Source: Eledone cirrhosa
Taxonomy: Eukaryota
DNA: 64,000 nt
Assembly: GCA_964016885.1 (NCBI GenBank)
Contig: OZ024742.1
Coordinates: 364,932,001 to 364,996,000 of the forward strand
Reading direction: 5' to 3'
Shown here in pieces: positions 44,826-62,087 of this stretch. The notes beneath the pieces are model-generated. The model was not told where the DNA came from, searched no databases, and saw only the letters and a list, made by a program, of their open reading frames with translations. Position 1 is the stretch's first letter; each line of letters starts with the position of its first letter. Position numbers and translations under genes: made by a program.

Positions 44826-45585
44826 CAAAGAAAATACGTTAAACGAGACGAGAAAATCTAAAAATAAGATCCCAGACGTTTGGAGGAAGCACACACACAA
44901 GAAAAGTAATGGTTTCAGATTTATGCACAAGGCCAGCAATTTTAGTGGCGGGGGGTGGGGGCATTAAATCAACGCCAGTGCATTACTGATGCTTTATTTT
45001 ATAGATGCCGGAAGAATGAAAGGCGAAGCTAACCTTGGCGGGATTCGAACTCAGAACGTAAAGGTCCGTAAACACAAAACAAAAATAATCAATATATATA
45101 TAATGAAACATTTGATTAATAAATCGAAGCAGTGTTTTTTCTTAAATCAGACAACACAGATTATATAGTTCTGATTGTAAAGTTAGTCTGCATCAGTCAA
45201 AAAAATATGTGATACAAATGAAACGACTGAGATGCTGGCCAAGACGTCAGAATTGATATAATCCACGTCAACCTCAGAAGATTTCATCACAATTTCCGTC
45301 CTCTTCTCGCTCTCTGTCTCTCTCTCTCTAAATATATATATATATATATATATATATATATATATATACACACACACACACACACACAGACACACACACA
45401 CACACACACACACACACACACACACACACACACACACACACACACACACACACACACACACACACACATATATATATATATATGTATTGAAGTTTCCGTT
45501 GAAAATTGAAAAAGTCATAGGAGTGAAGAGTGCTCTATGTAAGTACCAGAGCTAAATTTAATGTATAATAAACAATACAATATAA

Positions 45586-45659
45586 TTACCCCATTACCAG
45601 AGGTTTCCCGAATAAGACGAATACGAAAAACGTACTCATTCGTTCATCGGATAAGGCAA
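45586..45659 (-). ncRNA. Type I hammerhead motif (CCGAUGA core variant)
   Basis: Reverse complement reads ttgccttat-CCGATGA-acgaatgag...cttattcgg-GAAAC ctctg GTA-atggggtaa. Stem I is 9 bp including wobbles. Confidence 0.75.
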
Positions 45660-47365
45660 TTTAAAACATAGTGAAATATTTGAAAAATCTCCTCAAGAAA
45701 GGTTAGAATTTAACTGGCAAAAAATATATAAATAAAAGTAATGCAAGAGACATATAAAAACATAAGGAAATATAGTTAGTGTATGTGTATATGTATGTAT
45801 ATACACTCACAAATGTACATATGTGTGTATGTACAAATGCATGTGTATGGTGAAAATGTGTGCGTAAGTACATATATGAGGGCAAGTATATTTGTGTATA
45901 TGTGACCACAAATACGTATATAATATGAGTTGAAAAAGAAATTGTAAGATAATATAGTTAACACGCATCCAGATACAGGTATTAAATACACATACGAGTA
46001 TGAAAGCACGCGTATAAACACACACACACGCGCGGTCACTTATATGCGGAAGATAAAGAGCGAAGGGAGTGTAATAGTAAAGAGAAGTGGCATTCTCGAT
46101 ATATGTATAAAAATGAAACAAAATATGAGAATAAAAAAATGTTTAAATCAAAGAGAAAGTAATCAATTAACACTAGAGAAAAGAAAACAAACATAGGTAC
46201 GCACGTACACACACATATATATATATAAATATTTATACACTCAAATACGTACAGACAAAAGCGCATGCATGCGTACATACATACACACGACTCACGTATA
46301 TATATATATATATATCGCCACATGTATATCTAATCACACGTACGTACGCGACTATATATATTTACATATATACATACACACCCATACATACGTATACATA
46401 TACACACATATACATACACATACACATACATTCACCCACATACACACACACGTATAAATAAGTATGTAAAAAACATAGATATAAAAACACACATACACAC
46501 ACACATATATATATACGTACGCACGCACACATACGGAGGCGTTCGTATACATATACAGAACGTATACACACATATGCACACTCACACGCATAGATACAGA
46601 TTATAAACCACCCGTATGAATAAATGAGTACAAATATAAAATCGGCTGCGAAACAACAGAATATATCTGGAGTGGAAAACGCAAGTGACATTTAATATCA
46701 GGTAGTGAAAGAAAATGGTGAAGTAAAATGTGAAATGTGCAGATATTAGGTAAGTGAATCGAAAAGTAGGAGGGAGGTTTACTGGTGGATGTGAAGTAAA
46801 AATAAAAATGAAGTTAAAAATGAAAGTAAATCAGAAAGAGAAGTCTGTAAAGAGGATAATTTAAGGCAAGGCAAGTGAAGAACAATTTTTTTCATTCTCA
46901 TATATTGTTTCATTTTTATACATATATCGAGAATGACACTTCTTTTTACTATTACACTCCCTTCCTTCTTTATCTTCCGCATATAAGTGACCGCGCGTAT
47001 GTGTGTGTTTATACGCGTGCTTTCATACTCGTATGTGTATTTAATACCTGCATCTGGATGCGTGTTAACTATATTATCCTACAATTTCTTTTTCAACTCA
47101 CATTATATACGTATTTGTGGTCACATATGCACAAATATACTTGCCCTCATATATGTACTTACACACACATTTTCACCATACACGTGCATTTGTACATACA
47201 CACATATGTACATTTGGGAGTGTATATACATACATATACACAAACCCTAACTATATTTCTTTATTTTTTATATATCTCTTGCATTACTTTTATTTATATA
47301 TTTTTTCCCCATTAAACTCTTGCATTTCTTGAGGTGATTTTTCAAATATTTCACTATGTTTTAAA

Positions 47366-47439
47366 TTGCCTTGTGCGATGAACAAATGAGGACGTTTTTC
47401 GTATTCGTCTTATTCGGGAAACCTCTGGTAATGAGGTAA
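47366..47439 (+). ncRNA. Degenerate sister hammerhead motif
   Basis: ttgccttgt-GCGATGA-...-GAAAC ctctg GTA-atgaggtaa. The core is mutated. Confidence 0.6.
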
Positions 47440-47970
47440 TTATATTGTATTGTTTATTATATATATATATATATATATATATATATATATATATATATAT
47501 ATATATATATATATATATATATATATATATATATATATACACACATATATATATACCTTTCTGATTGACCATTAGTTCCACGAAGAACAAAATGCCTGTT
47601 GAGAAAGTGATTCCTTGTTCGGTCATTATACCGAAAGCTTATTATTTTTTATAAGCAAGCAGTATTATTGATTTAGATATCGCAGAAACCCTATATCGGA
47701 GTATAACATCTTCCCCGAAGATCCGCGTAACTATTTCAATCATATCTTATATTGTTTGACCCGTTTAGCTTGTTCGCTTTTTGGACTTGGATGGTTAATG
47801 GCTTTTTAACCATCGTCTAAGCTTTGTATGACCTTTTTAACTTATGTTTATAGATCTGGTATCTGCATATCCATAGAGCGCTTGTCAACTCAATTCGGAA
47901 TTTGCGTTTCGCTAATTTCTACCCGCCGAAATGCGATTCTCACTAAATTTATATATATATATATATATAT

Positions 47971-59070: not shown

Positions 59071-59243
59071 AAATATTATAAAAAGGAATAATAGATACAA
59101 TATACCTATTTTTTCTGGCTTACCTCACAACAATGTTACATATCTATGATATAACATTTTTGCATAGTGACCAGCGAAACTGTACAGTCGGGACTAAAGA
59201 AAAAATAGGTATATTGCATCTATTATTCCTTTTTATAATATTT
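59071..59243. mobile_element. Small fold-back element with a half-hammerhead in the loop
   Basis: Arms of 46 bp at 59071-59116 and 59198-59243. The loop has ctgg..ccagc-GAAAC tgtaca GTC. Confidence 0.75.
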
Positions 59244-59677
59244 AATATATATATATATACACACATATACACATACATACATACACACATACACATATAT
59301 ACCTACACACACATATATACATACACATATGTATGCATACATACACACACACACACACACATATATATAACTATATAACTATATATATATATATATATAT
59401 ATATATATAAATATATATATATACATATATATATATAAAAAAAGGATCGATCGACTTTCATCAAATCGGACCGAGGAAACAATGTTTCCGTTGGTCTTTC
59501 CAGTTGCTAGTACTATCTATCGGTCGCAACTCCAGGTAGAAGGAGCAACGTGAAATAAATATATATATATTTATCTCATATATATATATATATATATATA
59601 TATGAGAAAGAACAAATATTATGTATATATGAAAAAACCTATATATTGTATATATAAAAAAATATATTGTATATATA

Positions 59678-59896
59678 AAAATAAAAATAAAAATAAAAAT
59701 AAAAATAAAAATAAAAATAAAAATAAAATTAAAAATAAAAATAAAAATAAAAATAAAAATAAAAACAAAAATAAAAACAAAAATAAAAATAAAAATAAAA
59801 ATAAAAATAAAAATAAAAATAAAATTAAAAATAAAAATAAAAATAAAAATAAAAATAAAAATAAAAATAAAAATAAAAATAAAAATAAAAATAAAA
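59678..59896 (+). repeat. (AAAAAT)n hexamer microsatellite
   Basis: Direct reading. Confidence 0.97.
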
Positions 59897-61257
59897 AGTT
59901 GGGAATACGACAAATAATAAATAAAAAAATATATATTTAGAAAAGGGTATAAATGTTTATAGCAGATTTAGAGCACTCAACAATTCCTGGAGCAAAAGAT
60001 CAATGAAAATGAGCATTAAATTACTGTATGTAATTATGCATATACATACACCCATACATATATATATATATATATATATATATACACACACACATATATA
60101 TACATATATATATACACACACACACACAGAAAAAAACACAACCACAGAAATACACACACACATACAATTACGTATATATATATATATAAATATATACGCA
60201 CACATAGGAAAAAGTCTGACCCCGCGGCAGAGCTCAAGCCGTTTCTGCGGCTGGGGTCGATAAAATAAAGTACCAGTAATGCACTGGATGATTGCTGGCC
60301 TTGTGCCTAAAGTAGAAACAATTATATATATACACACAAAACCATTATATAAAAAAAAATACATATACACGCACAAATATACACACACACATTACATCTA
60401 TATATACACACATACACACATACACATATATACGTACATATATATATATATATATATATATATATATATATATATATATATATATATATATATATATATA
60501 TATATATATATATATACATATATATATATATATATATATATATATATATATATACACACATACACACATACATATATATATATATATATATACACACACA
60601 CGCCAAATACAACAGAAATATATAATATACGATTATATATACATATACATATACATACAGATAGATATAAACATACATACACACACATATATACATACAC
60701 ATATACATATACACACACAAATACATACACATATATATATACATATATATATATATATATATATATATATATATATATATATATATATATATATATATAT
60801 ATATATATATATATAATGTAAGGTATAGAAAACATTGTAGCGAGGCGAGAAGCCAATAGTATTACATAGTATATAAGTGACTATAGCGTCAAAATGGGAA
60901 AAATAATTCAAACTCATCTCAAAGAGAGCCAGGATATAGATTTTTCCAACAGAATTTAGTGAAATCCAGGGAAAAATCAATAGAGCCTTAACTCATGATA
61001 AAATAAAGTCTAAAATACTCATCCTTCAATTTGGAAAAACTTCAAATGCTCTGTATAGTCTTATAGACTATTTCACAAAAACTTTCAGTGGAGATGGTCA
61101 CGGTTGGAATTCGATCCTCAGCAGAGCTCAACTCGATAACCGAGATTCTCACAGATTAATATGCCAAAAAGGGAATTTAAAACAGGCTAGTTTTATATAT
61201 AGTTTTATATATTATATATATATATATATATATATATATATATATATATGTATATAT

Positions 61258-62087
61258 GGCATACGTTAAGAAGGGTGTTCGTGAAAGTGAAAGTAAATTT
61301 TCTGACAATTGAATTTGTTTGTTTTGTTTTTTAAAATGAAAGTTACGATACACACGCAATTGTATGGATTTCTTAAAATATATATATATGTGTGGGTGTG
61401 TATATGTGTGTATATATGTGTGTACACTGTGAATTTGTTTGTTTATTTACAACAGGTCTCTATAGTGATATGGTGTTAATTAGTATTGCGTGTGTGATTA
61501 TTTTTTCTTTTTCTTTTTTTGTGTATTGTGTGTACGTAAATTTTTTTTTAAAATAATGACACTGTGTGTTTTTAAATAGCAAGATATTACAAAAACATCT
61601 AAACGATGATGATGACACAAACACATATATATATACAAACACACATATATATATATACATACAGACACACATATATACACACATATACACACACACACAT
61701 ATATATATAAGAAAAAATAATCACACACGCAATACTAATTAACACCATATCACTATAGAGACCTGTTGTAAATAAACAAACAAATTCAGTGTACACACAT
61801 ATATACACACATATACACACCCACACATATATATTTTAAGAAATCTATACAATTGCGTGTGTATCGTAACTTTTACTGTAAAAAAAAAAAAAAAATTCAC
61901 TTGTCAGAAAATTTACTTTCACATTCACGAACGCCATTCTTAACGTATGCCTATATATATATATATATACATATACACATATACATACATATACGCAACA
62001 CACGTTGTTTATTACATAACTATTAGGCTCTGTTACCTACATAGAGCACTCTTTTTTCCTGGACTTTTCCGACGGAATTACTTCATT
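61258..62087. mobile_element. Fold-back element with family tail, no intact hammerhead seen
   Basis: Arms of ~245 bp at 61258-61507 and 61713-61951. The tail at 62003-62085 matches the tails at 49822-49912 and 45485-45585 (reverse complement). Confidence 0.8.

Follow-up and report, generated by a model that had tools for sequence, protein, structure and literature searches.

The 64,000-nucleotide stretch of Eledone cirrhosa DNA analyzed here (the window; GCA_964016885.1, OZ024742.1, positions 364,932,001 to 364,996,000) is repeat-rich animal-type DNA, of 23 to 45% GC outside one long interspersed nuclear element (LINE), with 158 tandem-repeat rows and several LINE fragments carrying RVT_1. 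In its last third lie six hammerhead ribozyme motifs, named E1L and E1R, E2L and E2R, and E3a and E3b, which fall into three lineages, E1, E2 and E3 (Table 1). These hammerheads, the insertions that carry them and their probable origin as ends of a Penelope-like retroelement (PLE) are the subject of this report. For comparison we used contigs from four public runs (X1 to X4, representing two samples and two studies) that contain part of 49822-50100; they were chosen by sequence likeness, and their source organisms may differ from that of the window. No RNA data set was listed as containing this segment, which says nothing about expression.

Table 1. Hammerheads, tails and insertions of the three lineages, with coordinates in the window.
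Feature	Position	Strand	Remarks
Element E1	45486..47459		outward-facing foldback flanked by microsatellites; the minus-strand main copy is tailed, the inverted one tailless
E1 tail	45486..45565	-	80 nt; hairpin H2 at 45532-45552; terminal CGGAA motif
Hammerhead E1L	45584..45661	-	11-bp stem I; U4C core; A.G at 10.1-11.1; predicted cut after 45595
Hammerhead E1R	47364..47441	+	C3G and U4C core, decayed; tailless end at about 47459
Element E2	49824..52102		foldback of about 370 bp minus the LINE: about 310 bp of palindrome and, at left, a 63-nt tail
E2 tail	49824..49886	-	63 nt; hairpin H2 at 49860-49880; terminal hairpin H3 at 49829-49841
Hammerhead E2L	49917..49987	-	G16.2 mutated to C in this copy alone; predicted cut after 49923
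LINE in E2	50014..51907	-	5'-truncated; RVT_1 and zf-RVT (Pfam); later insertion
Upstream conserved block (E2 and E3)	51961..51975; 53430-53445; 55591-55606	+; +; -	15 to 16 nt, exactly 32 nt before the core
Hammerhead E2R	52000..52073	+	C.A mismatch at 2.1-1.1; tailless end at 52102, 36 nt past the cut site
Element E3a	52470..53558	+	microsatellite-rich body and tailless end; left boundary approximate
Hammerhead E3a	53470..53529	+	11-bp stem II; two mismatches in inner stem I
Element E3b	55476..56600	-	tail to tail with E3a; tailless; right boundary approximate
Hammerhead E3b	55505..55566	-	sole copy whose core is intact and whose three stems all pair beside it
Tail-only copy	62002..62086	+	5'-truncated; closest to E3; starts about 18 nt past the cut site; H2 at 62027-62047

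A hammerhead sub-family in three lineages

A sequence-only reading of the window had placed hammerheads at 45586/47366, 49917/52000 and 53469/55507, and all six were found there. Each has the type I layout, in which a stem I strand, the core, a stem II region of 26 to 40 nt and GAAA-CC-NNN-GG-UA are followed by the second stem I strand. The element described as GAAAC-C-NNN-G-GUA (CUA in the 49917 copy), followed by AATT...TGTTTATTA, is present in all six copies. A pattern derived from the copies, and hence fitted to the observation itself, matched the window six times, where 200 Markov-simulated windows averaged 0.11 matches. A covariance model trained on E2 and E3 alone recovered the two E1 copies at E-values, which are rough, of 1.2e-7 and 1.5e-6, while the other eight nontraining matches had E-values of at least 0.26, the best of them (0.26) being the tail-only copy. 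Homology of the tail, and of the stretch from stem III to the first end, was borne out whichever two lineages were compared (0 of 1000 shuffles in each case). The pattern count, the recovery of E1 by a model of the other two lineages and the homologous tails together establish the six hammerheads as one real sub-family.

Among the six copies, stem I is paired at 5 to 8 of its first eight positions and stem II at 5 to 8 of eight; random 8-mers drawn from the window reach at least 7/8 pairing in 0.8% of draws. The core C3-U4-G5-A6-N7-G8-A9 with G12-A13-A14 is exact in four of the six (E2 and E3). The E1 cores read CCGAUGA or GCGAUGA instead of CUGAUGA, with U4C in E1L and both U4C and C3G in E1R; passages of PMC3088659 describe U4C as a natural hammerhead variant of low activity. 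Three helices with an open stem I, the A15.1-U16.1 pair and H17 are present, and the 10.1-11.1 position is A.G, G.U or U-A, the usual though not absolute G10.1-C11.1 closing pair of stem II occurring in none of the six copies. Helix III consists of 3 bp and a 3-nt loop and is merely pseudo-palindromic, and the bulge after A9 is absent. When E1L and E2L were each scanned alone against Rfam, no hammerhead was matched at E-values up to 10 and no family was returned for the tail, and none of the six hammerheads was among the 150 listed of 193 Rfam matches across the window.

Five of the six copies carry ribozyme defects in the core or stems: the two E1 cores, the stem III mismatch of E2L, the first stem I pair of E2R and two positions in stem I of E3a. 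In the related contigs the pairing base at 49925, lost in E2L, is read by about 99.9% of the depth. These defects bear on the suggestion that the hammerheads are functional ribozymes exapted by the host and kept by selection at this locus, which could draw on the intact E3b and on the stable fold of E1L (RNA fold z of -3.2). The arms of one insertion have diverged by 6 to 15% and E2 is split by a LINE, and with defects in all copies except E3b we consider exaptation extremely improbable.

Insertions, tails and ends

The arms of the E1 foldback (45565-46143 and 46881-47460, about 580 bp) are 94% identical, and its ends adjoin (TA)n or (CA)n. The LINE within E2 is flanked by an 11-bp target-site duplication (50003-50013 and 51908-51918). 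E3a and E3b are 82 to 92% identical; unlike the E1 and E2 pairs they face inward and both are tailless, and for this reason they are probably separate insertions or the product of a local inversion.

The tail proposed at 45485, 49822 and 62003 was recovered as a motif at exactly three places in the window, 45527-45552(-), 49855-49880(-) and 62027-62052(+), the last of them in a copy that has a tail without a hammerhead. Counted by their termini, the window insertions have four tailless and three tailed ends, all seven of which adjoin AT-rich microsatellite, and the distance from the predicted cut to the tailless end is 36 nt in three copies and 29 nt in the fourth. Sequences related to this family are highly abundant in the contigs, of which 16, 1725, 1798 and 1855 in the four runs aligned at 80% likeness, some of them on the LINE end at 50008-50100. 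Loose ends running into (TA)n cluster at 49824 (at least 30, at least 26 and at least 22 contigs in X2 to X4) and at 49885/49888 (at least 9 + 13, at least 8 and at least 8 contigs in the same runs), and both clusters coincide with the two end points seen in the window. The single X1 contig listed at 49824 runs into (GT)n. No accumulation of molecule ends was listed for any place, and contigs are unable to reveal cleavage ends. The summed contig depths stand at about 10:1 for the stretch before the first end versus the tail and at about 1:500 for E2-type stem II versus the shared stretch; such ratios do not measure copy number, and no conclusion was based on them.

Three short hairpins are predicted: H1 close to the first end, H2 (conserved, with 6 to 7 bp) within the tail, and H3 ahead of the second end. 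Because the tails as a whole fold no better than shuffles (z of -1.47, 0.23 and -1.86), we only hypothesize that the tail hairpins may have a role.

Foldbacks with TA flanks, as seen in E1 and E2, would also be formed by DNA transposons resembling miniature inverted-repeat transposable elements, with long terminal inverted repeats and hammerheads present by chance. The arms lack symmetry, only one of them being tailed, their length ranges from about 155 to about 580 bp, and single arms and a tail-only truncated copy are present, all of which make such transposons a very improbable source. Non-LTR retrozymes, which are tandem hammerhead repeats spreading through circular RNA, share traits with the window copies: they are noncoding, carry type I hammerheads and probably have a PLE origin (PMC7229834; 10.64898/2026.07.22.740005), a 2026 preprint having derived animal retrozymes from PLE ends (10.64898/2026.07.22.740005), and the high abundance in related contigs would suit them as well. 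Retrozymes are, however, defined by head-to-tail tandem units, whereas all six hammerheads lie outside tandem repeats and the pairs are inverted. Nor does any insertion begin at the cleavage site, the 62002 copy beginning about 18 nt downstream of it, and we therefore regard a retrozyme identity as improbable.

Changing stems and selection on the fold

The sequence-only reading held that the stem I and stem II sequences differ completely between lineages yet still pair. Pairing was confirmed for both stems; complete difference was not confirmed for stem I, since its strands in the E2 and E3 lineages cross-pair at up to 7/8 positions. The base of stem II is identical (CGA/UCG) in the E1 and E2 lineages. 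A fixed-register count for stem I gave 6.8 of 8 paired positions between native strands versus 4.4 across lineages, and for stem II 6.5 of 8 versus 4.75.

It had further been proposed that natural covariation supports a functional fold. A MAFFT alignment of seven pairs (outer stem II and stem III) in six sequences gave 90.5% paired cells and two-sided changes in two pairs, and the named register outscored every slid register (90.5% versus 15 to 48%). In a shuffle test on the same seven pairs, from which stem I was omitted since E1 is one base pair shorter on both strands, the covariation score was attained by 46 of 500 shuffles, and 348 of 500 had at least as many two-sided changes. Tail hairpin H2 has no two-sided change in three sequences, and stem III yields no covariation signal because it is invariant except for the private change in E2L. 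With only three independent lineages, an invariant stem III and 46 of 500 shuffles attaining the score, formal covariation is not established in this sample.

The other half of the proposal, a fold under past selection, fared better. Between 49824 and 49987 the related contigs have 28 variant sites, with none at the 11 core positions, where depth in the 5' half is low; the 80% likeness filter favors conservation, and a per-site variant table cannot reveal linked changes. Paired and unpaired sites did not differ (11 of 72 versus 17 of 81, Fisher p of 0.41). Nine of the 11 stem variants retain pairing, three of these merely revealing private mutations of the window copy, and the two that break it are both CpG transitions at no more than 8%; hairpin H3 has no variant in these contigs. 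The presence of the core, the pairing of stem II in three different sequences and the absence of core positions from the 28 variants support the conclusion that the hammerhead fold was under past selection. This reflects selection on the source elements and not on the window copies, which are old, noncoding and decaying.

How the three lineages came to differ is a related question, for which the sequence-only reading had proposed swapped stem II and bodies. The swap of bodies is overstated, given that E2 and E3 share the upstream block and that the large body of E2 is a later LINE. The block has three matches in the window against 0.00 expected (100 shuffles), and the upstream E2-E3 comparison was equaled in 3 of 1000 shuffles. 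A likeness between the E1 and E3 bodies (71 to 75%, in opposite orientation) was dismissed; it lies in TA/TG-rich sequence.

A stronger form of the swapping idea is that unrelated nonautonomous RNAs all acquired one PLE 3' cassette through template switching, in the way that SINEs take up the 3' ends of LINEs. This is compatible with a PLE identity and differs solely in the origin of the lineages. Several observations suit it: stem II cannot be aligned between lineages (518 to 1000 of 1000 shuffles score as high); the upstream 60 nt of E1 have no significant match to E2 or E3 (341 and 588 of 1000 shuffles); the 1.1 to 1.4 kb of E1 and E3 body contain no open reading frame (ORF); and in all four runs, contigs matching the 3' part of E2 continue into E3-type stem II at 49935 (at least 3, at least 23, at least 26 and at least 28 contigs). 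Nonautonomous PLEs with the 3' ends of autonomous ones, and pseudo-LTRs (pLTRs) mobilizing unrelated DNA, are described in passages of PMC3846280 and PMC8557442. However, E2 and E3 have both stem I and the upstream block in common at identical spacing, so that stem II forms an altered internal hairpin within flanks that are homologous, rather than one side of a crossover, and E2 has a body of its own of only about 60 nt. That the block has kept its distance from the core makes descent, with stem II changing along the way, the likelier course of events, and independent capture appears unlikely without being negligible.

In one X1 contig, which has a loose end behind 49922, the shared 3' stretch continues into a stem III and stem II of a fourth kind, a hint of further lineages.

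A probable Penelope-like origin and other elements of the window

We interpret E1, E2 and E3 as three diverged lineages of the 3' end (pLTR) of one PLE, with the enzyme encoded elsewhere and priming at two sites, and assign this reading a probability of about 0.82. A PLE protein from elsewhere, combining a GIY-YIG endonuclease with a reverse transcriptase (RT) of telomerase-like type, would nick (TA)n DNA, and reverse transcription would start at either of two fixed sites, about 30 to 36 nt after the cut site or 63 to 80 nt further on. The two start sites would give rise to tailless and tailed ends, often with a 5'-truncated inverted copy that would produce the foldbacks. The segment running from stem III into the tail would be conserved by descent because the protein needs it in cis, while stem II, which need only stay paired, could change freely. 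The hammerhead RNAs would presumably cleave themselves, after N17.

Several hallmarks of PLE insertions are found in the window. An inverted 5'-truncated copy stands beside the main copy in E1 and E2, though not in E3; there are two discrete 3' ends, with an optional tail at one end; and the hammerhead lies in the pLTR upstream of both. Parts of PMC3846280 and PMC8557442 describe PLE insertions that are 5'-truncated, often with an inverted copy and a tail of 30 to 40 bp on one end, some clades being biased to (TA)n, a description that the window copies resemble in all these respects except that their tail measures 63 to 80 nt and contains a conserved 6- to 7-bp hairpin, and that no ORF was seen from which a clade (Neptune, Poseidon or Hydra) could be assigned. 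The same sources report a (TA)n bias in Naiads as well, whose elements are without canonical hammerheads. A direct (partial tandem) pLTR pair is absent from these short insertions, an arrangement that is optional in truncated copies.

The hammerheads of PLEs have been described as pairs on opposite strands that form highly variable families within one genome and show poor cleavage on their own (PMC4209133, Cervera and de la Pena 2014). The window copies share with them the type I topology, the GUA triplet, a longer stem II, AU-rich flanks, opposite-strand pairing and the multiplicity of variable families. The metazoan consensus, as given in part of PMC4209133, shows a bulge following A9, G10.1-C11.1 and a helix III that is both minimal and palindromic, none of which occurs in the window copies, where in addition the stem II region reaches 26 to 40 nt and E1 has U4C.

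The Poseidon element PAc of Anolis offers a parallel for the ends. In vitro, two RT start sites downstream of its hammerhead bound the tail (Frangieh et al. 2024, PMC11167929), and cleavage by the hammerhead is protein-assisted and dispensable (PMC11167929). The arrangement of a hammerhead upstream of two tail-bounding start sites, the AT-rich target and a stem-loop at the start site are common to both systems. In PAc, the first end lies about 85 to 92 nt after the cut site, compared with 29 to 36 nt here, and the ORF starts inside the hammerhead, whereas the AUG of the window cores meets a stop within 15 codons.

A number of observations weigh against a PLE origin. No GIY-YIG or PLE domain was found in any of 80 stop-to-stop frames between 44800 and 63200 (83 listed, with 3 inside a tandem repeat left out) or in any of 13 long ORFs, and the RT matches among the window frames are LINE-type. 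Such an absence is expected of truncated or nonautonomous copies, and the copies are either nonautonomous or truncated within a long noncoding end. The tail is about twice the published length, the hammerhead departs from the published consensus, and the E3 pair stands tail to tail instead of head to head. Within the microsatellites no target-site duplication is legible, and the evidence comes from the window and the contigs, not from a whole genome.

A more far-reaching version, which we find doubtful and offer tentatively, would treat a cassette of about 190 nt (upstream block, hammerhead with 3-bp stem III, H1, H2 and H3) as a portable recruitment signal for one PLE enzyme across several noncoding SINE-like families. 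In such a cassette the feet of H1 and H3 would set the RT start sites and stem II would be a freely exchangeable insert. If true, several natural families together would map the PLE cis-signal, and tail formation could be studied on a compact substrate.

Elements of this kind are already known, including variable stems within one genome; the hammerhead details and the longer, structured tail differ from the published examples. For octopus, a repeat annotation of 2026 counts 30 Penelope families as recently active, and hammerheads are unmentioned in the available part of its main text (PMC13282606). Pattern scans gave no matches in viral contigs and, with two patterns, none in metagenome contigs. 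Four short window motifs are absent from one supplement of PMC8557442, and the supplements of PMC11167929 gave no text matches. The literature searched contains no description of the family; most subscription papers and the repeat databases were outside its scope, and Repbase/Dfam or supplements may list it.

Other hammerheads and foldbacks occur nearby. A second PLE-type end at 52142-52472(-) has a textbook minimal hammerhead (52353-52387) with the bulge, G10.1-C11.1 and a 4-bp stem I; it and E2R end in one and the same (TA)n, its opposite junction bears a 14-bp palindrome, and a 22-nt piece of it recurs at 54270. Four hammerhead-like motifs of other types lie at 26115-26188(-), 37239-37308(+), 48466-48537(+) and 131-161(+). 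The one at 48466, a weak match to Rfam HH9 (33.5 bits, cut-off 52), is situated between direct repeats (48085-48347 and 48557-48817) that are themselves partly inverted. More foldbacks or palindromes are present at 56990-58747, 61259-61950, 59072-59242, 1675-3422, 25605-25792, 27019-27137 and 27266-27454, and several end in (TA)n without a recognizable hammerhead; these may be other PLE families, such as ribozyme-lacking ones. Copies of the microsatellite-rich E3-type body with a different, hammerhead-free end occur at 54540-55400, 59245-60300 and 63100-63900, the segment 55251-55370 being inverted relative to 59898-60021.

The remainder of the window contains a 56-bp satellite (39136-44811; about 102 copies, 94% match) and LINE reading frames at 32009-35224(+), 30563-32083(-), 12182-14941(+) and 8200-10185(+). 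One open LINE frame encodes 1071 amino acids with endonuclease and RT, and 13403-14941 is an inverted copy of 30522-32062 (92%). A dispersed SINE-like family has copies at 49409-49556, 20417-20563, 27917-28056 and 56704-56821, with a tRNA match of 29.7 bits at 20434-20491.

In other respects the window copies are ordinary decayed transposon ends. They contribute a hammerhead form unmatched by Rfam in the two copies scanned alone. How PLEs recognize their RNA, and why the tail is optional, is only partly known, the in vitro work (PMC11167929) covering one element. A 3' block that stays constant while stem II changes, bounded by two sharp ends, marks out the bases that the PLE enzyme probably reads.

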